A stretch of 64,000 nt of DNA from an uncultured Candidatus Saccharibacteria bacterium (GTDB lineage Bacteria > Patescibacteriota > CPR2_A > CAYFQT01): assembly GCA_964345445.1 (NCBI GenBank), contig CAYFQT010000026.1:5685-69684 (forward strand). The letters are read 5' to 3'. Position 1 is the stretch's first letter. Each line of letters starts with the position of its first letter. The translations under genes and the position numbers were made by a program. Under the pieces are notes generated by a model. The model searched no databases, was not told the origin of the DNA, and saw only the letters and a program-made list of their open reading frames with translations. Positions 2,750 to 52,724 of this stretch are shown one piece after another.

Positions 2750-2787
2750 TACTGGAAAAAATTTTCAATTTTTTTTCAACCCGCCGT

Positions 2788-2871
2788 GCCCTGGTGCTGA
2801 AACTGGTAGACAGGCGTGGTTCAGGACCACGTGCTCAAAAGAGCGTGAGAGTTCGAATCTCTCCCAGGGCA
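2788..2871 (+). tRNA. tRNA-Leu (anticodon CAG), type II with long variable arm
   Basis: Acceptor GCCCTGG/CCAGGGC with discriminator A. Anticodon loop ttCAGga, long variable arm, T-loop TTCGAAT. Confidence 0.8.
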
Positions 2872-2921
2872 TTTTGCCAAATGAAGCCAAAATAGTATAA
2901 TTGAACTAGTTCATTCAATTA

Positions 2922-3005
2922 GCCCCCGTGGCGGAACTGGCATACGCGACAGGTTGAGGGCCTGTGTCCTTTTAGGACGTACTGGTTCAAATCCAGTCGG
3001 GGGCA
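2922..3005 (+). tRNA. tRNA-Leu (anticodon GAG), type II
   Basis: Acceptor GCCCCCG/CGGGGGC with discriminator A. Anticodon loop ttGAGgg, variable-arm hairpin gtcct-ttt-aggac, T-loop TTCAAAT. Confidence 0.7.
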
Positions 3006-3043
3006 CTGCGTTAGAAGAAACCCTTCAATTATTTTATCTTTAA

Positions 3044-3117
3044 GGGTGCTTAGCTCAGTTGGTTAGAGTGACTGGTTTACATCCAGTAGGTCGGGGGTTC
3101 GAATCCCTCAGCACCCA
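3044..3117 (+). tRNA. tRNA-Val (anticodon TAC)
   Basis: GGGTGCTTAGCTCAGTTGG...cloverleaf. Anticodon loop ttTACat, T-arm GGGGGTTCGAATCCCTC, acceptor GGGTGCT/AGCACCC. Confidence 0.85.
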
Positions 3118-3137
3118 CGTCGAAACAAAATTTAAGC

Positions 3138-3165
3138 TTTCGCCCCGAAAGCTTTCGGGGCGAAA
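3138..3165. terminator. Perfect 28-nt palindrome (12-bp GC-rich stem, AGCT loop) between tRNA-Val and tRNA-Phe. Hairpin, possibly a terminator or processing site.
   Basis: TTTCGCCCCGAAAGCTTTCGGGGCGAAA equals its own reverse complement. Confidence 0.5.
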
Positions 3166-3186
3166 ATGAAAGGTTTGTTTGGACGC

Positions 3187-3262
3187 GCCGAGGTAGCTCA
3201 GGTAGTAGAGCACAGGTCTGAAAAACCTGGTGTCCCCAGTGCAAGTCTGGGCCTCGGCACCA
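3187..3262 (+). tRNA. tRNA-Phe (anticodon GAA), with encoded CCA
   Basis: Acceptor GCCGAGG/CCTCGGC + A + CCA. D-arm TAGCTCAGGTAGTAGAGC, anticodon loop ctGAAaa. The T-loop tgcaagt is atypical (G at position 55). Confidence 0.75.
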
Positions 3263-3562
3263 CGTCGAAGTTATTCCACTATACATCCTGCTTCAGCAGG
3301 CTGCACCGCTCCATAAACTTCTCCTCTTTCTACAAAATACTAAAGTATTTTGTCGAGTTGAAAAAATTCTAAAGAATTTTTGCGAAAAAGGAGCATTGCT
3401 GAAGATGGAAACAAAATTTTTGAAGAAAATTTTGTGGAATCGGAGGTTGAAAATTTTACCCGTAAAAATTCTTCAGAATTTTTACGGAAAAGGAGAAGTA
3501 AAGCGAAAATTGGAATGATTTCTTAGGAAGAAATCATAAAAATGGCAGCTTTACTTCGACGT

Positions 3563-3635
3563 GCGGGTGTAGCTCAGTTGATAGAGCATCTGCTTGCCAT
3601 GCAGAAGGTCGTGGGTTTAAGTCCCATCACCCGCT
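3563..3635 (+). tRNA. tRNA-Gly (anticodon GCC)
   Basis: GCGGGTGTAGCTCAGTTGATAGAGC. Anticodon loop ttGCCat, discriminator U as expected for Gly. The overlapping ORF 3542-3817 translates the tRNA (AGVAQLIEH... artefact). Confidence 0.85.
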
Positions 3636-3817
3636 TCGTCGGAATAAACTTCCAGCTTTTGCGAATTTGTTTTACAAATTTGCTACCACTTTCAGTTTAT
3701 TCCTCCTCTTTCGCAAAAAATCTGACGATTTTTTGCAAGACAAAAACATTAGGTGACCTATTTTTCCTGTTTATAAGCGGGGCAGGGTCCGCGGTCTGCC
3801 TGCCCGCCAAAGCCTAG

Positions 3818-3889
3818 GGCCTCGTGACCGAGTGGTTTAGGTAGCGGTCTGCAAAACCGCGTACGGCGGTTCAAATCCGCCCGAGGCCT
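3818..3889 (+). tRNA. tRNA-Cys (anticodon GCA)
   Basis: Acceptor GGCCTCG/CGAGGCC with discriminator U (Cys-typical). Anticodon loop ctGCAaa, T-arm GGCGGTTCAAATCCGCC. Confidence 0.8.
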
Positions 3890-3894
3890 CTGAC

Positions 3895-3990
3895 ACTGGC
3901 AGGCGGGCCTGCCCGCTAATGCAAGCATAGCGTTGCAGGCGGGCAAAACCGAGTACAGCATGCGAATCCGCTCCAGGCCTCCGTAATTAA
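3895..3990 (+). pseudogene. Degenerate tRNA-Cys-like 3' half (tRNA remnant) fused to a GC-rich dispersed motif
   Basis: gcaaaaccgagtacagcatgcgaatccgctccaggcctcc is about 70% identical to the 3' half of the upstream tRNA-Cys but does not form a cloverleaf. Confidence 0.4.
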
Positions 3991-4019
3991 CTCATCTAAG
4001 GCATAATCAGAAAAAATAA

Positions 4020-4103
4020 GGGCGAGTGGCGGAATTGGTATACGCGCGACACTTAAAATGTCGTCCTGTTTACAGGGTGAGGGTTCGAGTCCCTCCTTGC
4101 CCA
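4020..4103 (+). tRNA. tRNA-Leu (anticodon TAA), type II
   Basis: Acceptor GGGCGAG/CTTGCCC with discriminator A. Anticodon stem CGACA/TGTCG with loop ctTAAaa, long variable arm, T-arm GAGGGTTCGAGTCCCTC. Confidence 0.8.
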
Positions 4104-4368
4104 CGTCCAAATAAACTTTCAGTTTTCGCGATCTCACAAAGTGAAATCGCTGTCACTTACAGTTTATTCCTCCTCTTTCTTCAAAATACTAAAGTATTTT
4201 GACGAGTAAATATAATACTTCCGACTTTCATGATTTTGTAGAACAAAATCGTTCTTTTTTAAAAAATCCTTGATTTTTTGATTTATAAGACTTAAAATAA
4301 AATATCTATAAAGAACATTTACAATTAAATACAAGACGAAAATCAAAATTTTAAAGGAGTGATAGTTA

Positions 4369-5514: not shown

Positions 5515-6345
5515 TTGAAAAAATATTTACCAATTTTATTGATTGCATTAGTTATAATCACCGGCTATTTTACATATAGCTATTTGCCAAAAGAGGGAGG
5601 AACTTTTTTTGGCGGCAGCAAAGGAAATCAAGAGAATACTAAAGATTCTGATTTTTCTTTCATTGTTTGCGGGGATAGTCATACAAACGAAGAAGTGTAT
5701 CAGAAAATTATTCAAAAGGCCAATGAAAATCAAGTGAAATTTTTAGTTGATTTAGGAGATATAACTAGGGTTGGAGCCGAATCAGAATTTACAGATTTTA
5801 AATCTCTTGTAAACGGGCTGAAAATCCCTTATTATGTAGTTTGTGGAAACCATGATGTTCTAAATAGTGATTCATTTTTTAAAAAATATTTCGGTGATAC
5901 TTATTATTCCTGGAATTACAATGATGTTCATTTTATAGTTTTAGATGATACAACAGATGAGAATGTTTTTTCAGAAAAACAGCTTGGTTGGTTGGAAAAT
6001 GATTTACAGGATTATAAAGAAAAGTTAGTTTTTATTTTTGTTCACAAACCTCCAAAATGTCCTTTTGTTACCTCTGATTTATTGGAATTTGAAGGCAAAG
6101 AATCAGACCAAAGGATTGAAAGATTTTTAGATATAGCCAGGGAATATAAAATTGATAAAATATATTCAGGGCATATTCATAACCATTTAAGTTATTCTCA
6201 GGGAGGGATACCTATTACTATAACTGGGGGAGCAGGAGGACCAACTCACAGGATACCTGTTTTTGGCCAAGCAGATTTTCCTCATTTTTTGTTGGTAAAA
6301 ATTAAAGGAAAAGAGTATAATGAAGAAGTAGTAAGAGTAGAGTAA
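5515..6345 (+). CDS. calcineurin-like metallophosphoesterase with N-terminal TM anchor
   Basis: Motifs GDSH..., DLGD, GNHD and GHIHNH. TTG start with GGAGAGGAAG RBS. Confidence 0.75.
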   Translation: MKKYLPILLIALVIITGYFTYSYLPKEGGTFFGGSKGNQENTKDSDFSFIVCGDSHTNEEVYQKIIQKANENQVKFLVDLGDITRVGAESEFTDFKSLVNGLKIPYYVVCGNHDVLNSDSFFKKYFGDTYYSWNYNDVHFIVLDDTTDENVFSEKQLGWLENDLQDYKEKLVFIFVHKPPKCPFVTSDLLEFEGKESDQRIERFLDIAREYKIDKIYSGHIHNHLSYSQGGIPITITGGAGGPTHRIPVFGQADFPHFLLVKIKGKEYNEEVVRVE

Positions 6346-6400
6346 AGAGATAAGAGATAGGGGATAGGAATTAGTAAAAATAAGACTTATAACTCATAAC

Positions 6401-6432
6401 CCATAACTTCTGCCAGAGGCTGATCCGCCTCT
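6401..6432 (+). terminator. Rho-independent terminator-like hairpin after the phosphoesterase gene
   Basis: TCTGCCAGAGGC-tgatcc-GCCTCTGGCAGA, a 12-bp GC-rich stem followed by an A/T-rich run. Confidence 0.5.
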
Positions 6433-6464
6433 GGCAGAAATAACTAATAACTAAGGAGTGACAT

Positions 6465-6920
6465 ATGGAACCACAAAGCCAATTTGAAACTAAACCAAAG
6501 TTACCACCTAAACCTAGAAAATCAGGAATGAAAGGTCCAATTATTGCTGGATTGGTAGTAGGTGTAGTTATAGCTAGTATTTTTTGGTGGGTTGTTTTAA
6601 GAAAACAAACCAGCTCTGAAGTTAAAAGTCAACAAACAGAAACACAGGAACAAGAAACAGAATATAAGGATACAACTGATCAGGATACTTCAGGAGAAGT
6701 TACAGGAGAAACTTATATTGTTAAATCCGGTGATACTCTTTCTTCTATTGCAGTTAAATTTGATATAGAAGATTGGAGAGACTTAGCCCGAGCTAATAAT
6801 TTAGAAGAGCCATATTCTTTGAAAGTAGGAGATGAACTGATAATTCCTACGGGAGAAACAAAAGGAGAAAGTACAGGAGAGTATAAAGAATATGATGAGA
6901 AAGGAGAAGAAATACCTTAA
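6465..6920 (+). CDS. LysM domain protein with N-terminal TM
   Basis: LysM signature YIVKSGDTLSSIAVKF...LARANNL....LKVGDELIIP. RBS AAGGAGTG. Confidence 0.7.
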   Translation: MEPQSQFETKPKLPPKPRKSGMKGPIIAGLVVGVVIASIFWWVVLRKQTSSEVKSQQTETQEQETEYKDTTDQDTSGEVTGETYIVKSGDTLSSIAVKFDIEDWRDLARANNLEEPYSLKVGDELIIPTGETKGESTGEYKEYDEKGEEIP

Positions 6921-7013
6921 TTGAGATACTAAATAACTAAAGCACTAAAAAAAATGAACTAAAAACTAAGAACTAATTAAAGATATTAATATTAATTTTA
7001 GAGGAGGTAAATT

Positions 7014-7583
7014 ATGAATCTAACATGGGTGTTTTTGGGTATAATAGGAATTATTATACTCTGGGTTATTGCTATTTTTAACAGTTTAGTAACTTCAAAA
7101 AACCGAGTAAATGAGGCTTGGAGCGATATTGATGTTCAATTGAAACGTCGATATGATCTTATTCCTAATCTTATTGAAACAGTTAAAGGATATGCAGCGC
7201 ATGAAAAGGAGGTTTTTCAAAAAGTAACTGAGGCTAGAACAAAAGCTATTGCTGCGGGATCAGTCAAAGAACAAGGAGAAGCGGAGAATATGTTAGCTGG
7301 AGCTTTAAAATCAATTTTTGCTGTAGCTGAAAATTACCCTGAATTAAAAGCTAATGAAAATTTCTTAAGCCTGCAGACTGAACTCACTGACACAGAAAAT
7401 AAAATTCAAGCATCTCGAAGATTCTATAATGGAAATGTTAGAGATTACAACATTAAAATCGAGAAATTTCCTAACAACTTAATAGCAGGTGTGCTTAATT
7501 TTAAACATCGTGATTTATTCGAATTAGAAGAAGGGGAAAAAGAAAAAGTAAAAGAACCCCCCAAAGTAAAATTTGAAAAGTAA
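7014..7583 (+). CDS. lemA: LemA family protein
   Basis: N-terminal TM, then NSLVTSKNRVNEAWSDIDVQLKRRYDLIPNLIETVKGYAAHEKEVF..., typical of LemA. It precedes htpX, as is common. Confidence 0.8.
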   Translation: MNLTWVFLGIIGIIILWVIAIFNSLVTSKNRVNEAWSDIDVQLKRRYDLIPNLIETVKGYAAHEKEVFQKVTEARTKAIAAGSVKEQGEAENMLAGALKSIFAVAENYPELKANENFLSLQTELTDTENKIQASRRFYNGNVRDYNIKIEKFPNNLIAGVLNFKHRDLFELEEGEKEKVKEPPKVKFEK

Positions 7584-9242: not shown

Positions 9243-10733
9243 ATGCCCGAAAATGAAAATCAAAAATTATCCTCAGATCAAAAAAATATTGAAAAAACAG
9301 ACGCTGAGTGGCATATTAAAACAATAGTTCCTCCTGCGCACCTGATTAGAAAGTCTAAAATTTTAGCAGCCAGAAAAGATAGATTTTTCCGAAAAATTGC
9401 ACTTATTTTTCTTATATTTTTTTTACTTATAGCAGGTGGGGTGGCAGCAGCTACTATTGTAGAAGGTGATTTTTATTGGGCAAGAGACCTTTTGGGTTTA
9501 GGTTTGCCCAGAGATCCAGGGGAGGCTATAGAAAAGATTTATACCCAGATGGATAAACTAGAGGCAGTACATACCGAAATGGATATGGATTTGCTTTTAT
9601 CATCTGAAGGAATAAATATAAAAATTCCTATTGAGGCCTATGGCGATACTGTTTTTCCTGATAAACAAAGAGTAAAATTGACTGTTGATACAAAATTTTT
9701 AGTTTCTGCCTTAGGTTCACTTTTGCCTTCTGATATAGCTTCTGATTTAAAAGAAATAAAAATTGAATATATTACAGATGGTGAAGGTATTTATTATAAA
9801 ATTCCCCAAATTTTTGGGGAATTATGGATAGAAGATACCTATCAGCAGTTTTCTTCTGGTACTTCAAATTTTGAAGATTTTTCAGACTCTCAAGAAAATT
9901 TCCAAGAGGTAGAGAAATTACCATCAGAGACATTAAGCGGAGTAAGATGTTATCATTATAAAATAACTTTTGATACTAAAAAATTTCTGGAAGATCTAAC
10001 TGATGAAGACCTGACTTATGAAGAAGCTAGTCTTTTAAATAATTTAAAAATCGGAGGGGAGATTTGGGCTTCTAAAAAAGATTTTTTAATCCAGAGAATG
10101 AATATAAATATGTCTTTTACTTTCCCTTCTGATGTTATTGAACAAATAGCTTCCATTTTTGAAAAACATTTTTCTAGTTTTGCTCCTTATTTGCATTTTG
10201 ATCAAGTTTTAGGTACCTCACAAGATAAAAAAATAGAAGCTTATAAAAATCAAGATAAAATTAACATTTCTTTAGAAATCGTATATTCTAATTTTAATAA
10301 ACCTATTAATATTAAAAAACCTCAGGAAACTAAGAAAATTACTGATATTTCAGAAAGTGATATCATAGATTCTCCTTTAGGTCATCTTCTAAGTAGTACA
10401 ATTAGTGAAAGCGAATCAAGCATTAATGATATTCAAAGAAAAAGTGATTTATATCAGATTGGAGCTGCTTTGGAATTATATGCCGATGATAATTCAAGTC
10501 AATATCCTGCATTTTCCGGAATTATTAAAATAGATGGAAGTGATGAATTGTCTCAAGTATTAATAGGAGATTACCTGCCTTCTATGCCTCGTGATCCTAA
10601 ATTCCCTGAATATTATTATGAATATTTTTCTGACGGGACCAGTTATGAACTTATTTGTATTTTAGAAGATGAAACTGATCCTGAAGGAGAAAGAGTAGGA
10701 GATAGGTATATTTATAAACTTATCTCTGAATAA
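9243..10733 (+). CDS. hypothetical membrane protein with type IV pilin/pseudopilin (GspG-like) C-terminal domain
   Basis: ATG at 9243 follows the htpX stop and is preferred over the overlapping start at 9159. The TM segment IALIFLIFFLLIAGGVAAATIV and the C-terminus DLYQIGAALELYADDNSSQYP...PRDPKFPEYYYEY resemble pseudopilin globular domains. Confidence 0.45.
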   Translation: MPENENQKLSSDQKNIEKTDAEWHIKTIVPPAHLIRKSKILAARKDRFFRKIALIFLIFFLLIAGGVAAATIVEGDFYWARDLLGLGLPRDPGEAIEKIYTQMDKLEAVHTEMDMDLLLSSEGINIKIPIEAYGDTVFPDKQRVKLTVDTKFLVSALGSLLPSDIASDLKEIKIEYITDGEGIYYKIPQIFGELWIEDTYQQFSSGTSNFEDFSDSQENFQEVEKLPSETLSGVRCYHYKITFDTKKFLEDLTDEDLTYEEASLLNNLKIGGEIWASKKDFLIQRMNINMSFTFPSDVIEQIASIFEKHFSSFAPYLHFDQVLGTSQDKKIEAYKNQDKINISLEIVYSNFNKPINIKKPQETKKITDISESDIIDSPLGHLLSSTISESESSINDIQRKSDLYQIGAALELYADDNSSQYPAFSGIIKIDGSDELSQVLIGDYLPSMPRDPKFPEYYYEYFSDGTSYELICILEDETDPEGERVGDRYIYKLISE

Positions 10734-10774
10734 TTAAGTATAGATGATGTGAGGTTATTTGATATAATCGCTCA

Positions 10775-10890
10775 GGGAACGAAAATTTGCTTCTGCCCCG
10801 TAAAACGGGATAAACGGAGCTGTTTTTCGAACAGCTTACCCCGTAGGAGCGAAGCGACTTTCGGGGACCTCGTGCGCAAATTTTGTTCCC
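10775..10890 (+). ncRNA. Structured 5' leader upstream of ligA. A long-range stem encloses three hairpins. An extended -10 promoter (TGaTATAAT, 10761-10769) precedes it.
   Basis: GGGAACGAAAATTTGC (10775-10790) pairs with GCAAATTTTGTTCCC (10876-10890). Inner hairpins are CCCG-taaaa-CGGG, AGCTGTT-tttcg-AACAGCT and CCCCG...CGGGG. Confidence 0.35.
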
Positions 10891-11037
10891 TCTACTTAAA
10901 GAATTATTATTTATTGGACTTCCGGTAAATGCCCAAAAAAAGACTTTTTTTGGAGATGTCCTCAGACAAAAAATTCCAATTATTTTGTTAATGTTAAATT
11001 TCCGTTATAATAAAGGTGAGATTACTCACCTTTTTAA

Positions 11038-14237: not shown

Positions 14238-14537
14238 ATGGCATTAACTAAGAAGCAAATTGAACATATTGCTATGTTGGCTCGTTTAGGTTTGACAGAA
14301 AAAGAAAAGAAGAGGTTTGAAAGACAACTTTCTTCTGTTTTGGACTATGTAAATCAACTTAATAAAGTAAATACAAAAAATGTCCAGCCAATTGCCCAAA
14401 TAACAGGACTTAAAAATGTAATGGAGGAGGATAAAGTAAAAAGTGATAAGGAGAAGATATCAAAAGATAAATTGTTGAAGAATGCGCCAATGCAGGAAGA
14501 AGGGTGTGTGAAAGTGAAAGCGGTATTAGAAGAGTAA
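14238..14537 (+). CDS. gatC: Asp/Glu-tRNA(Asn/Gln) amidotransferase subunit C
   Basis: MALTKKQIEHIAMLARLGLTEKEKKRFERQLSSVLDYVNQL is a canonical GatC N-terminus. Promoter-like TTGTCA-17-TATACT lies at 14152-14187. Confidence 0.85.
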   Translation: MALTKKQIEHIAMLARLGLTEKEKKRFERQLSSVLDYVNQLNKVNTKNVQPIAQITGLKNVMEEDKVKSDKEKISKDKLLKNAPMQEEGCVKVKAVLEE

Positions 14538-14596
14538 AGGTTACTATGAGTTACTAGAAGTTACTAATGGTTACTAAGAAAGTTACTAGAGGTTAT

Positions 14597-14992
14597 ATGC
14601 AAGAGGAAGCTTATAAAAAATTATTAGTTTGGAAAAATATTTGTGAGTTAAGAAGACTGATTTATAAAATAACTGAGAGATTTGCTAAGACTCATCCAAG
14701 ATTAGCTGGACAAATGAGAGACGCTACAAGATCAGCAAAACAGAATTTTATAGAAGGATATAAACGAGATTCAATTGGATTATTTATTCAATCTGTTAAA
14801 GTTAGCCGAGGCTCTTTAGGAGAATTGGATGGTGATATTGATGATTGTTATGAAGATAATTTAATTACAAAATTGGAGTATACTAATTTAAGTAATTTGA
14901 GTAAAAAATCTTTATACTTAATTGATAGATATATAGATTCGTTATATAAAATGCAAAAAGAAAAAACTTGGAGAGTAAGGTGGCAAAAATAA
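14597..14992 (+). CDS. four-helix-bundle protein (TIGR02436-like), inserted between gatC and gatA
   Basis: ...LLVWKNICELRRLIYKITERFAKTHPRLAGQMRDATRSAKQNFIEGY is characteristic of this family. ATG at 14597 has a better RBS (AGAGG) than the ORF-track start at 14567. Inverted heptamer arrays flank the gene. Confidence 0.65.
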   Translation: MQEEAYKKLLVWKNICELRRLIYKITERFAKTHPRLAGQMRDATRSAKQNFIEGYKRDSIGLFIQSVKVSRGSLGELDGDIDDCYEDNLITKLEYTNLSNLSKKSLYLIDRYIDSLYKMQKEKTWRVRWQK

Positions 14993-15059
14993 TTTTGCAA
15001 CCTTTAGTAACTTATAGCAACTATTAGCAACTATTAGTAACTTATATTTACTAATTAAA

Positions 15060-16646
15060 ATGAATTTAGAAAATCTTACAATTTTACAAGCTCATAAGAA
15101 GCTGAAAAATAAAGAGACTTCATCGGTTGAATTAACCAAAGCAGTTTTGGATAGAATTAAAAAGACTGATAATAAGATTAATGCTTTTATTACAGTCACA
15201 GAAAAAGAAGCATTAAAACAAGCAGAAGAGGCTGACAAACGGATTAAAACTGGAAAGATGCTGAGTAAACTTGATGGAATTCCAGTGGCTCTAAAAGACA
15301 ATATGGCAACAGAAGGAATTTTAACAACAGCTGGTTCTAAGATTTTAGAGAATTTTAAACCGCCTTATGATGCTACAGTTGTTAAAAAAATAAAAGATGC
15401 TGGTGCTATTATTATTGGCAAAACCAATATGGATGAGTTTGCCATGGGTTCTTCTTGTGAAACTTCTTATTTTGGTCCTACGAAAAATCCTTGGGATACA
15501 TCCCGAGTTCCTGGTGGCTCTTCAGGAGGTTCTGCAGCGGCTGTTTCAGCTTCACAATGCATTTATGCCCTGGGTTCTGATACCGGTGGTTCTATTCGCC
15601 AACCAGCCTCTTTTTGTGGTTGTGTAGGCTTAAAACCTACTTATGGTCGAGTATCTCGATATGGTCTTTTGGCTATGGCCTCTTCTTTGGATCAAATTGG
15701 ACCACTTGTAAAAAATACAGAAGATGCAGCAGCAGTTTTGGAGGCTATTTCTGGATATGATGGGGAAGATAGCACAAGCGTAGACAAAAAGTTCAAAGTT
15801 CAAAGTTCAAAGTTCAAAGTTTTAAAAAATGTAAAAATTGGGATTGCTAAGGAGTATTTTAGGGAAGGTTTAGATAAAAAAGTTGAAGATAAGATAAAAT
15901 CAGCGATTAAAGTTTTAGAGTCAAGGGGAGCCAAGATTGAAAATGTTAGCTTACCTCATACTCAATATACCTTAGCTTGCTATTATATAATTATGCCTTC
16001 AGAAGCTTCCACTAATTTAGCCAGATATGATGGAATAAAATATGGATATTCAACCACTCAAATCTCAAATCTCAACTCTCAAAACTTATTAGATGTCTAT
16101 CTACAATCAAGGGCAGAAGGTTTTGGAGATGAGGTAAAAAGGCGAATAATGTTAGGAACTCATACATTATCTTCAGGTTATTATGATCAATATTACTTAA
16201 AAGCTGCTAAAGTTAGAACAAAAATAAAAGAAGATTTTGACAAAGCATTTTCTAAAGTGGATGTTTTAATAACTCCTACTTCACCAACTGTTGCTTTTCC
16301 ACTCGGGGAAAAGTTAGATGATCCATTGACTATGTATTTATCGGATATTTATACAGTACCGGTTAATTTAGCCGGAGTGCCGGCAATTTCTGTTCCTTGT
16401 GGACTAGTTAAAAAGGTTACTAAAAGTTACCAAAAGGATACTAAAAAGTTACTAAAGAGAGTTGATAAAAATACTTTTAGTAACAATTTGCAACCCCTAG
16501 TAACCCCTAGTAGCTCATTATTACCTGTAGGTTTACAAATAATAGGTCCTCAGTGGGGAGAAGAGAAAATTCTACAAACAGCTTATATCTATGAACAGGC
16601 AACAAAAGATGAGGGGTGGAGGAAATTAAAGCCAAGTATAAAGTAA
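15060..16646 (+). CDS. gatA: Glu-tRNA(Gln) amidotransferase subunit A, with in-frame repeat insertions
   Basis: Amidase signature [11 protein letters not shown], plus [10 protein letters not shown] and the catalytic Ser/Lys context. Three low-complexity inserts are encoded by short DNA repeats. Confidence 0.9.
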
Positions 16647-18598: not shown

Positions 18599-20131
18599 AT
18601 GGAATATCAGACAATAATTGGATTAGAAATCCATGTACAATTGAAGACAAAATCTAAAATGTTCTGCAGATGTGATAATTATTCAGTGGATGCCAAGCCA
18701 AATATTAATACCTGCCCAGTATGTATGGGAATGCCTGGAACTCTTCCAGTGATAAACCAGCAAGCTATAGAATGGGCAGAAAAGACCGCCTTGGCTTTAA
18801 ATTGTAAAATTTCCTCATTCACTAAATTTGATCGAAAAAGCTATTTCTATCCGGACTTACCCAAAGGATATCAGATATCCCAATATGATATGCCTTTAGC
18901 GGTAGGAGGATGGTTGGATATTGATGTGCCAGAGTCAAAAGTTCAAAGTTCAAAGTCTAAAGTCCAAAATAAGATGTATACTAGAAGAATTAAAATCACT
19001 AGGTTGCATATGGAAGAAGATGCAGCAAAGTTAATTCATTCCGTAAAGGGACGTGGTCCCTACGGGACTTTACGTCCAGAGGTGGCAGATTATAGTTTGG
19101 TTGATTTTAACCGTGCCGGAACTCCACTTATGGAAATTGTTACAGAACCTGACCTAAGCTCCCCACTTGAAGCAAAGATTTTTATGCAGGAGTTAAGAAG
19201 TATTTTGCGATATTTAGATGTTTCTGAAGCTGATATGGAGGAGGGAAATTTGAGATGTGATGCTAATATATCATTAAGTCCAAAGTCCAAAATCCAAAGT
19301 CCAAAGTTGGGGGAGAAGGTGGAAATTAAAAATATAAACTCTTTTAAGGCTGTAGAGAAAGCTTTAGCTTACGAAGTGGAAAGGCAAAAGGATATTTTAG
19401 AAAGTGGGGACAAGATAGTTCAAGAAACTAGAGGCTGGATGGAAGATAAAGGCAGAACAATCTCCCAGCGAGGCAAAGAAGAAGCAGAAGACTATCGTTA
19501 TTTTCCCGAACCAGACTTGCCACCATTGGAATTTGAAAAAAAACAAGTAAAAGAAATTCAATCGAAATTACCTGAATTGCCTAACCAGCGCCAAAGAAGA
19601 TTTGTTAAAGAATATGACCTGTCAATGTATGATGCTCAGGTTTTAACTTCTGAGAAAGAAACATCTGTCTTTTTTGAAGACACAGTTCAAAAAATATCCA
19701 AATTAAATCACGAAAAGGCCAAGAGGGCGTGCAACTGGATAACAACGGAATTGCAATATTTACTTAAGGATAAAGATATAGATATTAGCAAATGCAAAAT
19801 TAAACCAAAGGATTTAGCCGAGCTTATTGGATTAATTGACAAAGGAGAAATCTCAGGGAAAATAGCCAAAGATGTATTCGTAGAAATGTTTAATTCCGGA
19901 AAAGCCCCTTCGGAAATTGTGAGTAAAAAAGGATTAAGACAAGTTAGTGATGAAGGAGAATTAGAGAAAATTATAGATAAAATTATATCTCAAAATAAAC
20001 AAGCAGTTTCTGATTATAAAGAAGGAAAGGAAAATGCATTTAAGTTTTTAGTAGGGCAGACAATGGCTTCTACCCGCGGTCAAGCCAATCCTCAGATGGT
20101 TAATAAGATATTGAAGGAAAAATTGAAATAA
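18599..20131 (+). CDS. gatB: Asp/Glu-tRNA amidotransferase subunit B, with two in-frame repeat insertions
   Basis: MEYQTIIGLEIHVQLKTKSKMFC.C...GMPGTLP and DFNRAGTPLMEIVTEPD match GatB. It carries a C-terminal GatB/YqeY domain. Confidence 0.9.
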   Translation: MEYQTIIGLEIHVQLKTKSKMFCRCDNYSVDAKPNINTCPVCMGMPGTLPVINQQAIEWAEKTALALNCKISSFTKFDRKSYFYPDLPKGYQISQYDMPLAVGGWLDIDVPESKVQSSKSKVQNKMYTRRIKITRLHMEEDAAKLIHSVKGRGPYGTLRPEVADYSLVDFNRAGTPLMEIVTEPDLSSPLEAKIFMQELRSILRYLDVSEADMEEGNLRCDANISLSPKSKIQSPKLGEKVEIKNINSFKAVEKALAYEVERQKDILESGDKIVQETRGWMEDKGRTISQRGKEEAEDYRYFPEPDLPPLEFEKKQVKEIQSKLPELPNQRQRRFVKEYDLSMYDAQVLTSEKETSVFFEDTVQKISKLNHEKAKRACNWITTELQYLLKDKDIDISKCKIKPKDLAELIGLIDKGEISGKIAKDVFVEMFNSGKAPSEIVSKKGLRQVSDEGELEKIIDKIISQNKQAVSDYKEGKENAFKFLVGQTMASTRGQANPQMVNKILKEKLK

Positions 20132-20457
20132 TTCGAAGAATATTGAGAATTACTAATGAACAATTGCTAATTTCTAATCAAATCCCAATGACTAATAAAG
20201 AAACAAAATTCTAAATCCGAAATTCTAAATACTAAATCCTAAATCCCAACGGGATCCCTTCGGGACAATATCAAATGACCAAAATGCTACCACAGCCCCA
20301 CCCAACCACCCTTTTATTGTATAGATTATATAACAAAACAATATAAGTTTAGAACATTGGAAAATTTGAATTTTGAATTTATTTAGGATTTAGAAATTAG
20401 ATATTAGAAATTTTATAAGATAAGTTAATTGTGTTATATTAAAACCAAGGAAAAATA

Positions 20458-21099
20458 ATGCGAAGAAAAAGAAAAGCAAAAGTTACAATAGAAGAAGATG
20501 AAGAAGTTACAACGGGTTGGTCCAAAGTCCAGAAATATTTGGAAGAGAAGAATATCAATTCTTTTCTTTTAGCTGTTTTAGAAGCTGATAAATTATTAGC
20601 CAAGGCATTAAAAGATAAAGGTTATCCTGGCAAGACCACCCAGGAGAAGATTGGAGCAGCCAAGGAAAAATTTACCAATATCAATTTTCTTCTTGGTGCA
20701 AGAGATATACGAGATAAGATTATTAATAAAATAGATTATAATCTTTCTTCTTTGGATTTAGAAGATGCTATTTCTGCCTATAGGCAAGCCATAATTGATT
20801 TAGGAGAAGAATCAGAGAAATTACCTATTTCTGAAAGATTATTACTTCTTTTTCATTATTATTATCCTTCTAAAAAACAAGCACTTAAAAAAATTATTAT
20901 TTATATAGTTTTATTTTTTACAATAGTTTGGTTTTTGTCTCATACTTCACTAGGACAAAATATTGTTAATATTGTAGTAGGAGTAACCAATATTATTTTC
21001 AGTTGGGTTTTAGCAATAGTTTTGTTGGTTGTGGGAGTTATAATTACGGTGATTGCAAGTCTTTTGTATTTTGAGAAAAGAAGGAAGGAAAGAAGATGA
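20458..21099 (+). CDS. hypothetical membrane protein
   Basis: Charged N-terminus, then two to three TM segments (IIIYIVLFFTIVWFL..., IVLLVVGVIITVIASLLYF). Confidence 0.4.
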   Translation: MRRKRKAKVTIEEDEEVTTGWSKVQKYLEEKNINSFLLAVLEADKLLAKALKDKGYPGKTTQEKIGAAKEKFTNINFLLGARDIRDKIINKIDYNLSSLDLEDAISAYRQAIIDLGEESEKLPISERLLLLFHYYYPSKKQALKKIIIYIVLFFTIVWFLSHTSLGQNIVNIVVGVTNIIFSWVLAIVLLVVGVIITVIASLLYFEKRRKERR

Positions 21100-21258
21100 T
21101 GTAAAAATTCTAAATCCGAAATCCTAAACAATATCTAAATTCCAATGTTCAAAATTCTAAACATTATATTTGTTTTGGTCATTTGGATTTAGATATTAGG
21201 ATTTGTTTAGAAATTAGATATTAGAAATTAGGATTTTAATTTAAAGGGGTGAACAAAT

Positions 21259-36520: not shown

Positions 36521-37978
36521 ATGGTTAAAAATGTAATTTATATATGTGAGGAATGTGGGGGTTCTTTTCCTAAATGGATGGGGAAATGTCCTGAGTGTGG
36601 CAGGTGGAATAGTTTAGTAGAAACGATAACCCCCACTAGAAGGAAAAAATCAAGAGGTCAAGATTTAAAAAAAATAACTGTTGCAGAAAGACTGGATAAG
36701 ATTTCCACTTTAAAATTTGGAAGAGTTTCAACAGGTATTTTTGAGTTTGATAGAGTATTAGGAGGTGAAGGAACAAATCAGGGAATTGTGCCTGGATCAG
36801 TAGTTTTATTGGCTGGTGAACCAGGAATTGGAAAATCTACATTGCTATTACAAGTTTGTGGCAAGCTTGTAGAGAATAATCTAAGAGAAAAACACATAAC
36901 TCATAACAACACATCTCGGCAAAAGGCCAATCCCTCCCAGCCGGCAGGTGTGGCGCCTCTGGCGGGAACTCATGTCCTATATGTCTCTGGTGAGGAATCA
37001 TCTGGTCAGGTTAAACTTAGAGCAGACAGACTAGGCATTTCCTCCGGTAATCTTTTTATATTACCAGAAACAAATATTGATCAAATAATTTATACAATAG
37101 AAAAACAAAATCCTGCTTTAATTATTATTGATTCTATTCAGGCACTATATTCTCAGGAGATTGTTTCTCAAGCAGGGGCAATTCCTCAAGTTTATTTTTG
37201 CTCTTTGAGATTAAAAGATACAGCCAAAGAAAAGAAAATCCCTGTTTTTTTAATTGGCCATGTGACTAAAGCAGGAAGTATTGCTGGCCCTAAAGTTTTG
37301 GAACATTTGGTTGATGTTGTTTTATATTTAGAAGGAGAGAAATATCATACATATCGGATGCTTAGAAATATTAAAAATCGTTTTGGGCCCACCTCAGAAG
37401 TTGGTATTTTTGAAATGAAAGACAAAGGATTCTGCGAGGTAGAAAATCCATCAAAAGTTTTACTAGAAGAAAAATCTTCTACCGCTGGATCTGTTACTGT
37501 AGCTAGTTTGGAAGGAACTAGACCTATGTTGATAGAATTGCAGGCTTTGACATCAGCCACTTCTTTTGGTTATCCAAAAAGAACAGCTTCAGGTATAGAT
37601 TTTAATCGTCTCCAACTTCTTTTAGCTGTTCTTACAAAGAGAGCAGGACTTAGGCTTTTAAATCAAGATGTTTATTGTAATATTGTAGGTGGTTTTAAAA
37701 TTTCAGAACCAGCTTTAGATTTGGGAATTTGTTTGGCAGTAGCTTCTGCTTATAAAAACAAACCCGTTGATTCTAAGCTAGTTACATTTGGAGAAGTTGG
37801 TTTATCTGGTGATTTAAAAACAGTTTTTCATTCAGATGTAAGAATTTTTGAAGCAGAAAAATTAGGTTTTAAAAAAGCCCTAGTTCCTCAAAGTACTAGA
37901 TTAGAAGATTCAAAAAGAAAGATTAAAATATTAAGAGCTGGTGATATATCTCAAGCAATTAAAATAGCCCTTTTATAA
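36521..37978 (+). CDS. radA: DNA repair protein RadA (Sms), with a GC-rich in-frame insertion
   Basis: C4 zinc finger CEECGGSFPKWMGKCPECGRW, Walker A GEPGIGKST, KNRFG motif and a Lon-like C-terminal domain. Confidence 0.9.
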   Translation: MVKNVIYICEECGGSFPKWMGKCPECGRWNSLVETITPTRRKKSRGQDLKKITVAERLDKISTLKFGRVSTGIFEFDRVLGGEGTNQGIVPGSVVLLAGEPGIGKSTLLLQVCGKLVENNLREKHITHNNTSRQKANPSQPAGVAPLAGTHVLYVSGEESSGQVKLRADRLGISSGNLFILPETNIDQIIYTIEKQNPALIIIDSIQALYSQEIVSQAGAIPQVYFCSLRLKDTAKEKKIPVFLIGHVTKAGSIAGPKVLEHLVDVVLYLEGEKYHTYRMLRNIKNRFGPTSEVGIFEMKDKGFCEVENPSKVLLEEKSSTAGSVTVASLEGTRPMLIELQALTSATSFGYPKRTASGIDFNRLQLLLAVLTKRAGLRLLNQDVYCNIVGGFKISEPALDLGICLAVASAYKNKPVDSKLVTFGEVGLSGDLKTVFHSDVRIFEAEKLGFKKALVPQSTRLEDSKRKIKILRAGDISQAIKIALL

Positions 37979-38286
37979 TAAAATCAAAAATCAAAATTCA
38001 AAAATCAAAATGACAGATTAAAGTTTAAATTCAAGTAAAATTTTACATTTTGATATGTAATTTTGTCCCAAAGATGTCCAAGCTTGCTTGGTTACATCTT
38101 AGAGATCCCGTTAATTCAAAATCGTTTTATATTGTAGAGAAACGTTTATTGAGATACCCGTTTGGACATAAAGGGATCACTTAAAATTTACAAAATCAAA
38201 GATTTTGAATTTTTCGGGATACTTTACATTTTAAATTTTCATTTATTATATCTTTATCATATTTATTATTTGAAAGGAGAGTTTTT

Positions 38287-49506: not shown

Positions 49507-49596
49507 GCGGGCGTGGCGGAATTTGGAAGACGCGCGTGGCTTAGGACCACGTTCCCATTTATGGGATTGGAGGTTCAAGTCCTCCCGCCCGCACCA
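49507..49596 (+). tRNA. tRNA-Leu (anticodon TAG), type II, with encoded CCA
   Basis: Acceptor GCGGGCG/CGCCCGC + A + CCA. Anticodon stem CGTGG/CCACG with loop ctTAGga, variable hairpin CCCAT-tt-ATGGG, T-loop TTCAAGT. Confidence 0.85.
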
Positions 49597-51094: not shown

Positions 51095-52396
51095 ATGAAA
51101 GTAGAAAAAGAAAAATTACCTAAAAGTCAAATAAAATTAACCATTAAGGTTCCTGTACATGATGTGAATAATTTTTTAGACCAAGCTTATAGACGCTTGG
51201 CTGAAAAAGTGAAAATTCCTGGTTTTCGTCCTGGAAAAGCTCCTCGTTTTATGATAGATCAAGAGGTAGGTACAGACAAAGTTCAGGAACAGACTTTAGA
51301 AATTGCTGTATCTCAAACATATTTTCAAGCAGTATCTTCTGAGAAAATTGTTCCAATTGCCAAACCAGAAGTGAAAATTTTAAAATTTGCCAAAGGCAAT
51401 TCCTTAGTATATGAGGCGATAGTTCCAATAATGCCTGAGGTTATCTTAGACGACTACAAGAAGAAAGTTGGTTCTTTATCTTTAAAACCTGAAAAAATTT
51501 CAGTTGGTCAAAAAGATATAGATGAGGCTCTTTTAGGTCTGCAAAAAAGTAAAGCAGAATTTATTTCAACATCTCGATCCGCTCGTAAAGGCGATAGAGT
51601 AGAGATTGATTTTGATGCTTCAATTAATAGGGTCCCTTTGGAAAAAGGCAAAAGCAGGAATCACCCACTTATAATTGGAGATGGAATGTTTGTTCCAGGA
51701 TTTGAAGATAATTTAATTGGAATGAAAAAAAATGAGAAAAAAGAATTTTCCATTGTTTTTCCTAAAGATTATCTCAAGAGAGAATTGGCAGGTGAAAAAG
51801 TAGATTTTAAAGTTCTCCTAAAAGATATTCGAGAAGTTAAATTACCTCCTTTGAATGATAAGTTTGCAAAAGAAGTAACCAAAATAGATTCTCTTTCGGA
51901 ACTTAAAGAAGATATTAAAAAAAGATTGCAAATAGAGAAAGAAAAAAGACAAAAAATAGAGTTTGAATCAAAAATAATAGAAGAAGTTGTGAATTGTGCC
52001 CGTACAGAGACACCGGAGATTTTAGTAGAAGAAGAAATTAAATCAATGATTTCCGAATTAAAAAATCGATTAGAAAATCAAGGATTAAAATTGGAACAAT
52101 ATTTAAAAAATATTAAAAAGAAGGAGGAAGATTTAAAACAAGAATATAAAAAAGAGGCGGAAAAAAGAATTAAAACTGCGTTAGTATTGAATAAAATAGC
52201 CCTTAAAGAGAAAATTAAAGTTACAGATAAAGATGTACAAAATGAGTTTGATAGGATGATTAAAGCTTATCCTCAAGAGGTAGATAAGATAAAAGAAAAA
52301 CTTTCTTCTGATAAAGATAAGCAGTATGTAAGAAATATCTTGCGGAATCAAAAAACAATAAAAAGATTAATGGAATTAGCAAATAGAAATGACTAA
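51095..52396 (+). CDS. tig: trigger factor
   Basis: N-terminal ribosome-binding domain (GFRPGKAPR), FKBP-like PPIase middle domain, C-terminal helical arms. 433 aa. Confidence 0.85.
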   Translation: MKVEKEKLPKSQIKLTIKVPVHDVNNFLDQAYRRLAEKVKIPGFRPGKAPRFMIDQEVGTDKVQEQTLEIAVSQTYFQAVSSEKIVPIAKPEVKILKFAKGNSLVYEAIVPIMPEVILDDYKKKVGSLSLKPEKISVGQKDIDEALLGLQKSKAEFISTSRSARKGDRVEIDFDASINRVPLEKGKSRNHPLIIGDGMFVPGFEDNLIGMKKNEKKEFSIVFPKDYLKRELAGEKVDFKVLLKDIREVKLPPLNDKFAKEVTKIDSLSELKEDIKKRLQIEKEKRQKIEFESKIIEEVVNCARTETPEILVEEEIKSMISELKNRLENQGLKLEQYLKNIKKKEEDLKQEYKKEAEKRIKTALVLNKIALKEKIKVTDKDVQNEFDRMIKAYPQEVDKIKEKLSSDKDKQYVRNILRNQKTIKRLMELANRND

Positions 52397-52724
52397 TGAC
52401 CAATTACTAATTCTTAATCAAATCCTAATGATAAATAAAAATGTCAAATGACTAATTTTAAAATACCAAATAAAATCCAAATGGCTAATGACAAAATATT
52501 TAGAAATTTAATAATTTATTTATTGATTTGGCATTTGGATTTTGATATTAGACATTAATTAGACTTACTTTGACTTGCCGAAGGCGAGGCAGGCATTAGG
52601 TCAACCTGTGACTAATGCAAGCATAGTGTTGCAGGCGGGTTAGAAATTAGAAATTTTACATATATGCTATCAATTATTATTTGTATAAAGTTTAGCGTTA
52701 TTTTGTGTTTAAAAGGAGGGAGAT

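Follow-up and report, generated by a model that had tools for sequence, protein, structure and literature searches.

Heptanucleotide repeat arrays translated within loops of GatA and GatB in an uncultured bacterium and its relatives

How does a tandem repeat with a 7-nt unit, which cannot gain or lose a single copy without shifting the reading frame, come to lie inside an essential gene, and does it do anything there? The question is raised by the amidotransferase gene gatA in a 64,000-nucleotide stretch of DNA from an uncultured Candidatus Saccharibacteria bacterium (contig CAYFQT010000026.1; G+C ~33%; the whole of this stretch is referred to below as the window). The answer offered here is that the gatA array is probably a translated heptanucleotide microsatellite in a permissive variable loop, with no motif function of its own. 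It is one case of a widespread and specifically heptameric class of repeats. As read from assembled sequences, arrays in relatives gain and lose whole 7-nt units, giving rise to frameshifted gatA alleles in natural populations.

Period-7 arrays in the window and their place in GatA and GatB

The original prediction placed a perfect CAAAGTT array inside gatA, a second array in the same gene and two more in gatB. Tandem Repeats Finder confirms all four (Table 1); the AAAGTTC unit of gatA array 1 is a rotation of CAAAGTT. This array is a simple sequence repeat (SSR) beyond the expectation from shuffling: against its 4.9 perfect head-to-tail copies, shuffles yield 0-0.15 comparable arrays. In the window as a whole, 3 exact heptamer runs reach 2.5 copies or more, compared with 0.15 expected from dinucleotide shuffles, and a lag-7 test in a 21-nt sliding window picks out 3 segments, compared with 0.0 expected. 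No other lag from 4 to 24 shows a comparable excess in the sliding test: period 7 is the sole over-represented repeat period of the window. It accounts for 23 of the 112 Tandem Repeats Finder rows, coding and intergenic, and the heptamers are dispersed. The strong coding arrays number four, every one of them in gatA or gatB, and the remaining arrays are intergenic. gatA array 1 and gatB array 1 belong to one family (D1), with 80% identity across 40 nt.

Table 1. Heptamer arrays of the window and the two genes that contain the coding arrays
Feature	Position	Strand	Description
gatA	15060..16646	+	528-residue open reading frame; TIGR00132, E 6e-191; contains gatA arrays 1 and 2
gatA array 1	15788..15821	+	(AAAGTTC)x4.9; period 7; 100% matches (Tandem Repeats Finder)
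gatA array 2	16057..16083	+	(CTCAAAT/CTCAACT)x3.9; 90% matches (Tandem Repeats Finder); 10-residue peptide
gatB	18599..20131	+	510-residue open reading frame; NF004012, E 4e-202; contains gatB arrays 1 and 2
gatB array 1	18929..18968	+	degenerate (TCAAAGT/TCTAAAG/TCCAAAA), x5.7; 78% matches (Tandem Repeats Finder)
gatB array 2	19276..19307	+	(AAGTCCA/AAATCCA)x4.6; 92% matches; encodes SPKSKIQSPK
Intergenic array	20206..20246	+	(AAATTCT/AAATCCT/AAATACT); units contain stops; inverted pair with 20381-20412 (I5, I21)
Intergenic array	20381..20412	+	(ATTTAGG/ATTTAGA/AATTAGA); reverse complement of the 20206 array
Intergenic array	37980..38010	+	(AAAATCA)x4.4; immediately past the stop of the open reading frame 36521-37978

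gatA array 1 specifies an 11-residue peptide, residues 244-254 of GatA (loop 1); the DNA at 15780-15830 translates in frame to 17 residues spanning it. Array 2 lies in loop 2, between YDGIKYG and GFGDEV. The gatB array 1 region translates as VPESKVQSSKSKVQNKM, with SKVQSSKSKVQNK as the peptide encoded by the array. Since an in-frame heptamer repeat runs through all three reading frames, it generates a peptide with a 7-residue period that can be recognised at the protein level.

The original prediction also held that the reading frame is kept only by copy number, and the arithmetic is correct. When one or two units are added to, or removed from, any of the four window arrays in simulation, the protein ends within ~10-30 codons; simulated loss of three units restores the frame. 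gatA array 1 has one property of a neuO-type phase-variable locus, a repeat inside an open reading frame (ORF) with a unit that is not a multiple of three, so that the frame is set by copy number. None of the four coding units contains a stop on the sense strand in any of the three frames. The antisense of both gatA units (AAAGTTC and CTCAAAT) does contain stops, so that the orientation of the gatA arrays is forced; units of intergenic window arrays, such as AAATCCT and TTAGGAA, contain stop codons. A structured RNA is rejected as an explanation: the minimum free energy of the array is -0.7 kcal/mol (z-score +1.6), which makes it less structured than its shuffles. Rfam models match only tRNAs in the window, with no match at the array.

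Where do these peptides lie in the folded proteins? gatA array 1 occupies a variable linker that the conserved DSTS motif precedes and KIG.PKEY (KIGIAKEY in the window protein) follows, and in alignment with Protein Data Bank (PDB) entries the length of this linker is almost the same as in the Aquifex and Staphylococcus aureus GatA structures. The other three sites show net gains relative to solved structures: +5 residues in the loop containing gatA array 2, +9-14 at gatB array 1 (an insert confined to a close clade) and +3 at gatB array 2. The suggestion that the array is a tolerated insertion is only roughly right: at gatA array 1 nothing has been added on balance. An AlphaFold model of GatA (17-sequence alignment; mean pLDDT 73.8, moderate) predicts coil at residues 241-258, and its confidence falls below 50 at 322-333 and 341-374, around loop 2, and at 456-484, in a C-terminal insert. 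The model supports a loop assignment for the GatA arrays, as low-confidence coil, and is silent on surface exposure and subunit interfaces.

Among homologs, the median length of loop 1 is 18 residues with an array and 20 without. Where loop 2 contains an array it has 20 residues in 16 of 19 sequences; where it does not, it has 14-15 or 20. The arrays substitute for loop sequence, with little change of length.

Recurrence and turnover in relatives

At the protein level, homologs were searched for stretches of 8 or more residues that match exactly a stop-free peptide specified by any 7-nt unit. The GatA set consisted of the best 120 homologs, 56-73% identical to the window protein with the exception of P0001, which is identical to it; the closest bear the source names Nealsonbacteria, Portnoybacteria, Parcubacteria or Patescibacteria. 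Heptamer-derived peptides occur in 40 of the 120, as 50 arrays located nearly without exception at residues ~242-257 (loop 1) or ~328-362 (loop 2). With up to 3 mismatches allowed in 11 residues, a level that shuffled loops never reach, loop 1 is heptamer-derived in 40 of 102 sequences and loop 2 in 25 of 109. The same exact scan finds 5 of 120 GatB and 3 of 120 LigA proteins, the latter all in one linker: in the same lineages, arrays are ~10-20 times more frequent in GatA than in GatB or LigA. In a broader bacterial sample of GatA, representatives of 50%-identity clusters, the count is 1 of 150. Over the 120 homologs and these 150 representatives (which add 1 array), 26 unit classes can be counted, and the units found in GatA homologs are A-rich types of the form AAAnnnC. 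The window gatB sites also recur among the GatB matches, site 1 in P0226 and site 2 in P0172 and P0208.

At the GatA loops of four other Parcubacteria, near-perfect arrays of 32-50 nt are confirmed in DNA: AAATTCC in loops 1 and 2 of L084; AAAGTCA in loop 1 and AAATCCA in loop 2 of L085; AAATACA in loop 1 and AACTCAA in loop 2 of L087; and TCAAGAT in loop 1 of L094, the loop 2 of which is free of an array. Other arrays in these Parcubacteria lie in the RseP and TrmD genes and in intergenic DNA. The same two GatA loops hold heptamer arrays of many different units across Parcubacteria, over a radiation that ranks as a phylum, and the unit has turned over completely. The nearest relative for which DNA is available, L001 (GCA_004196295.1; GatA identity 73%), is syntenic with the window over ligA, gatC, gatA, a peptidyl-prolyl isomerase gene, two small genes and gatB. 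Among the matches listed for control loci outside the candidate phyla radiation (CPR), heptamer arrays are found mainly in cyanobacteria, where they flank gatA and do not enter it. The cyanobacterial short tandemly repeated repetitive (STRR) sequences are defined by a cyanobacterial host and canonical units; the host here belongs, by the source names of its closest GatA proteins, to the Patescibacteria/Parcubacteria, and the A-rich AAAnnnC-type units are not the canonical ones.

Recurrence at fixed positions is accompanied by rapid change of the repeats themselves. The orthologous gatB site 1 was compared in four genomes that are 76-81% identical, and all arrays there are in frame: ~4.5 copies of TCAAAGT in the window; ~5 copies of AAAGTAA with extra units in L082; (ATCAAAA/ATCAAAG)x5 in L083; and, in L001, an AAGTACA-like array broken by a GC-rich palindrome. 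Units as well as copy numbers differ. Identical inserts conserved in distant relatives, which would have favoured a stable structural insert, are not what is found. Within clusters of at least 90% identity, substitutions gather in the loops, and entire loops are rewritten at nearly constant length (VNSKFQIPNSKIEIKNLK vs VETQLLNHSTTRSLKELK is an example). Near-identical strains nearly always have one shared array.

Several truncated GatA proteins in these clusters begin or stop at the loops. Three truncated gatA variants were examined in DNA, and in all three a whole-unit deletion lies inside a loop array. L091, L092 and L093, from three separate assemblies, have four units in loop 1 instead of the six in L094; the 14-nt deletion splits gatA into ORFs of 257 and 185 residues. 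Their gatA is otherwise 98% identical to that of the intact L094, with 23 synonymous and 7 non-synonymous codon differences, a ratio indicating that the frameshift is recent. L095 lacks one ATTTCAA unit (-7 nt) in loop 1, and L096 differs from the intact L087 only by the loss of one loop 2 unit (-7 nt), the remaining 1526 nt being identical. That these alleles are products of assembly is rejected: the imperfect L096 array has, on inspection of its sequence, no repeated 21-mer, so that de Bruijn collapse is impossible, and the -14 allele is identical in three assemblies; an artefact of low coverage may account for some of what is seen. Thus, unit-step length polymorphism exists in relatives, as the -14, -7 and -7 nt alleles and as the differing copy numbers at gatB site 1. 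The claim that the arrays are slippage-prone is supported on these grounds, which come from related species known from assemblies, not from the window organism.

Do these frameshifts amount to a switch? A contingency locus, in which reversible gain and loss of units would switch or titrate GatCAB and so alter, in part of a population, Gln/Asn mistranslation or the transamidation that depends on glutamine, is unlikely, although several observations speak for it. The arrays lie in ORFs with a unit that is not a multiple of three; putative OFF alleles, which come from related species and each rest on single assemblies, differ by whole units and may coexist with intact alleles in natural samples; and about one-third of related lineages retain arrays at these two loops of GatA, with the excess over GatB and LigA already noted. 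According to two papers on mycobacteria, mutations in gatCAB raise mistranslation and antibiotic tolerance (PMC7541841, PMC8406222). A split enzyme is also conceivable. In L095 (600-760) the downstream ORF is called 8 nt past the stop of the upstream fragment, with a start read as TTG, and the split would cost only about four loop residues; L095 gatA might therefore be expressed as two fragments, divided at a surface loop.

Against it stand the following. Four to six units are few, and low slippage rates are to be expected of them. The intact allele prevails: the P0014 protein is on at least 24 contigs that were read (63 blocks in the index), as against 1-2 truncated members. No in-frame copy-number series, with its 7-residue steps, is found among ~45 full-length cluster members. 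Known contingency genes have surface, restriction-modification or host-interaction functions, whereas the hosts here are housekeeping genes: gatA, gatB and, elsewhere, enolase, L10, Mur ligase and aminoacyl-tRNA synthetase genes. Identical in-frame arrays in several of these argue for a general mutational process. With short arrays that near-identical strains nearly always share, no 7-residue steps and many housekeeping hosts, gatA array 1 may be a contingency or phase-variation site but is probably not a dedicated switch.

The comparison with neuO of the Escherichia coli K1 prophage CUS-3, in which an in-ORF 5'-AAGACTC-3' heptanucleotide repeat drives phase variation (PMC13001214), is instructive in this regard. 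In both systems a heptanucleotide repeat is translated within a coding sequence and full-length protein is made only at fitting copy numbers; in neuO, slippage generates ON and OFF alleles (PMC13001214). In contrast, neuO, an accessory gene for surface modification, has its 3-53 copies at the 5' end and switches at a measurable rate, whereas the gatA and gatB arrays comprise 4-6 copies in internal loops of housekeeping genes and are nearly always in frame.

The same array in unrelated genes, and the formation of arrays

Metagenome contigs scanned for exact copies of (AAAGTTC)x4 contain at least 120 loci (L097-L216). The flanks of the 120 listed loci are unrelated and the G+C of their contigs ranges from 0.29 to 0.67. 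Among these loci, 64 arrays sit in open frames of at least 150 residues. An element specific to gatA is rejected, in that none of 100 array-bearing ORFs among the matches listed is GatA or GatB. Pfam identifies the hosts as ribosomal protein L10, Mur ligases, class I aminoacyl-tRNA synthetases, enolase, phosphoglycerate kinase (PGK), carbamoyl-phosphate synthase, TsaD, RseP and others. Net length changes relative to solved homologs are small (+4 residues in enolase, +2 in L10). Array length in the long ORFs is 31-35 nt in 52 of 64, with a mode of 34 nt, the length of the window array; outside long ORFs the distribution is long-tailed. Heptamer runs of other units are also abundant in the listed loci, 118 as against 27, 6 and 8 runs with periods of 6, 8 and 9, and their lengths have a secondary mode at 31-33 nt.

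That a single array can be read in so many enzymes bears on the notion that the K/S/Q-rich loop peptide is itself selected for service in GatCAB (for example in contact with tRNA or a partner), the periodicity of the DNA being incidental. The encoded peptides are all hydrophilic and often basic, and the constant 20-residue length of most array-bearing loops 2 is also in keeping with selection. It is nonetheless very improbable: loop peptides of different lineages are unrelated in sequence, alleles at ~90% identity have non-repeat loops, the same peptide is found in unrelated enzymes, and nucleotide-perfect repeats imply a recent process at the DNA level.

Preference for 7-nt units has ample precedent. 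Heptamers are the most abundant long simple repeats of many prokaryotes, and a polymerase footprint has been proposed as the cause (PMC4692102, PMC4679880). The arrays share with these prokaryotic heptamer SSRs (Mrazek et al. 2007; STRR; the GGGAATC repeats of Xanthomonas and Nostoc) the enrichment of period 7, lineage-specific units, length differences between close relatives and slippage as the proposed cause (PMC4692102, PMC4679880); STRR-like heptamer arrays flank gatA at the cyanobacterial loci L010, L013 and L026. The simple repeats found in prokaryotic genes are reported to have units that are multiples of three, heptamers being described as mainly intergenic (PMC4692102, PMC4679880), whereas the arrays described here are read in frame in essential genes of CPR and other uncultured bacteria. 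The TAACTGA repeats of marine Beggiatoaceae, cyanobacteria and Bacteroidetes are likewise heptamer direct repeats, with 2-6 copies per set and a scattered phylogeny; unlike the gatA and gatB arrays, they favour one unit, placed just upstream of start codons (PMC4679880). The arrays considered here have many units and occur in ORFs as well as between genes. Borg tandem repeats are also perfect, fast-evolving nucleotide repeats within ORFs, and they create disordered regions (PMC9879509), as the arrays add low-complexity loops; with a 7-nt unit, unlike a Borg unit, every single-unit change is a frameshift. Published work presents heptamers as mainly intergenic, and in-frame heptamer repeats in essential genes are under-described.

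A mechanism for the microsatellite that is probably before us can be outlined. Slipped-strand mispairing (polymerase stuttering), which in relatives is seen directly to change copy number, would also create the arrays and turn them over, starting where A-rich loop-coding DNA under weak constraint happens to contain a unit twice; the bias towards 7 nt would lie in the machinery of replication or repair, as has been suggested before for heptamers of prokaryotes. Selection would then act as a filter with four components: stop-free sense orientation, a total length that is in frame, a loop length close to native, and hydrophilic peptides rich in K, S, Q and N. Such selection could account for the limited size of arrays in ORFs (~31-35 nt). 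Alleles changed by one or two units would be null, would arise continually and would mostly be purged; the array would therefore be mainly a tolerated mutational liability.

Several observations do not sit easily with this mechanism. A perfect array of ~34 nt that replaces a loop at a net length change of about zero (0 residues in GatA loop 1, +2 in L10, +4 in enolase) is hard to build by one-unit slippage when, in an essential gene, each one-unit intermediate is out of frame. Plain birth-death slippage predicts monotonic decay of array lengths, in place of which there is a sharp mode at 31-35 nt, also outside long ORFs. The ~10-20-fold excess in GatA over GatB and LigA calls for an explanation, for which permissive loops are a candidate, and GC-rich palindromes occur repeatedly inside arrays, a hint of another process. 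Nor does the window itself provide a case of turnover: a search of metagenome contigs for strain variants, anchored on the flanks, had 0 matches, and an exact-protein look-up with the window GatA and P0001 gave no match. The sole other record of the window GatA is P0001, an identical protein found on 3 contigs.

An alternative is that an array of about five heptamers arises in a single event, not by gradual slippage: templated or stuttered synthesis during break repair would produce it, or a very small mobile element akin to the hairpin elements nearby. The characteristic length of 31-35 nt, the replacement of native sequence with little net change, AT-rich arrays within contigs of 60-67% GC, and equally long repeat and non-repeat loops in alleles of ~90% identity are all in its favour. 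So are the GC-rich palindromes in arrays of L001, P0005, P0067, P0087 and P0109 and two in-frame inserts of the window, a 36-nt hairpin in gatB and, in gatA, the ends of a four-helix-bundle cassette (both described below). Yet the arrays at the 120 listed loci lack shared flanks, terminal inverted repeats and target duplications, the units vary from locus to locus inside one genome, the whole-unit insertions and deletions are those of ordinary slippage acting on arrays, and no candidate enzyme has been identified. Insertion as a module is improbable, and a mobile element with defined ends is rejected, there being nothing in common between the flanks of the 120 listed loci.

A combination can also be imagined, in which arrays of about five units are a quantised mutational product that overwrites essential loops and, in Parcubacteria, serves as a heritable, reversible switch or titration of GatCAB. 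The conjunction is improbable. If it were true, titration of GatCAB would tune the fidelity of Gln/Asn translation or dependence on glutamine, and the quantised product could be the stuttering of a repair polymerase or a very small mobile element, at work across many uncultured bacteria.

The tolerated microsatellite, the reading preferred here, has consequences of its own. In-frame heptamers in essential genes of translation, glycolysis and cell-wall synthesis provide an abundant system for the study of repeat formation, including the 31-35-nt mode and the replacement of native sequence at unchanged length. They raise the questions of how large a mutational load small-genome symbionts bear in their essential genes and of whether GatCAB is dispensable or tunable in CPR bacteria. 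For annotation, a gatA that seems split in a CPR genome bin may be a real slippage allele.

Other insertions and repeats around the arrays

Between gatC and gatA lies a gene (ORF 14567-14992, + strand) for a four-helix-bundle protein (TIGR02436; 23S rRNA intervening-sequence protein/Avd-like) that is not present in the syntenic L001. On either side of the gene stand inverted arrays with units of ~10 nt, of the GTTACTA type (14535-14577) and of the TAGTAAC/TAGCAAC type (14994-15055), which are 77-81% complementary; the whole (14535-15055) looks like an inserted cassette. An Avd-like gene next to gatA brings to mind a diversity-generating retroelement with gatA as its target. This is rejected, because the variation is in whole units and is not adenine-specific; no direct repeat of at least 45 nt that might be a template/variable pair involves gatA or gatB, in an analysis that did not include a search for a reverse transcriptase.

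GatA also contains a 38-residue in-frame insert (residues 450-487, ~16407-16520), before LPVGLQIIG, that comprises both types of cassette arm but no gene: identity to 14536-14560 is 84% at 16411-16456, and identity to 14994-15023 is 73% at 16487-16516. The insert has the look of an empty copy of the four-helix-bundle cassette, resembling a miniature inverted-repeat transposable element (MITE). Inserts are present or absent at this site in P0014, P0041 and P0003, and P0262 has 26 residues more there than P0065, at an identity of at least 90%.

Three close relatives lack a 36-nt in-frame insert that gatB has at 19040-19075 (12 residues, SVKGRGPYGTLR). The inverted repeats at its termini (CGTAAAG/CTTTACG) enclose the hairpins GGGAC-GTG-GTCCC-TAC-GGGAC, the core of which recurs with 2 mismatches in intergenic DNA at 20254-20266, right after a heptamer array (0.1 chance matches expected). 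In several Parcubacteria with genomes of ~30-40% G+C, GC-rich palindromes of the CCTGCC...GGCAGG type lie in frame within heptamer arrays: in L001 in gatB (9439-10959) and in gatA loop 2 (6001-7539), and in P0005, P0067, P0087 and P0109. They translate as LPTGQA, CLPAGR or CLAGRQ, and a composite SEIR.PK-SLPTGQAG-EIRN is common to loop 1 of P0067 and loop 2 of P0109.

Palindromic elements are known to lie in frame in genes of Rickettsia, and Elhai et al. (2008) reportedly described small dispersed repeat (SDR) elements in Nostoc, which are very small hairpin repeats embedded in heptamer arrays. The palindromes in the L001 gatB array and those specifying LPTGQA and CLAGRQ are like the Nostoc SDR in this placement, and the hairpin at 19040-19075 is like the Rickettsia elements, a short hairpin in frame in an essential gene. 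Unlike either, the heptamer arrays themselves have no hairpin or element ends, and any relationship is only putative.

Downstream of gatB, the ORF 20458-21099 (213 residues, no family match) has inverted heptamer arrays on both sides (20148-20420 and 21105-21236; I1, I2, I5). Parts of its flanks are found a second time at 52388-52439 (85% identity) and at 52504-52563 (70%), here too just past the end of a gene, which suggests a dispersed intergenic element built of heptamer arrays.

Related Parcubacteria contain further selfish insertions in essential genes: a gyrB intein (Pfam Intein_splicing) in L085 (18586-21461) and L087 (18836-21533), and a weak LAGLIDADG-type ORF in L087 (12808-13470), ~1.3 kb downstream of gatA. 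In the window itself, seven tRNA genes are clustered on the + strand at 2787-4104 (Leu-CAG, Leu-GAG, Val-TAC, Phe-GAA, Gly-GCC, Cys-GCA and Leu-TAA), with an additional Leu-TAG gene at 49507-49596; short dispersed repeats lie among the clustered genes (3321-3379/4170-4228 and 3677-3733/4144-4200).

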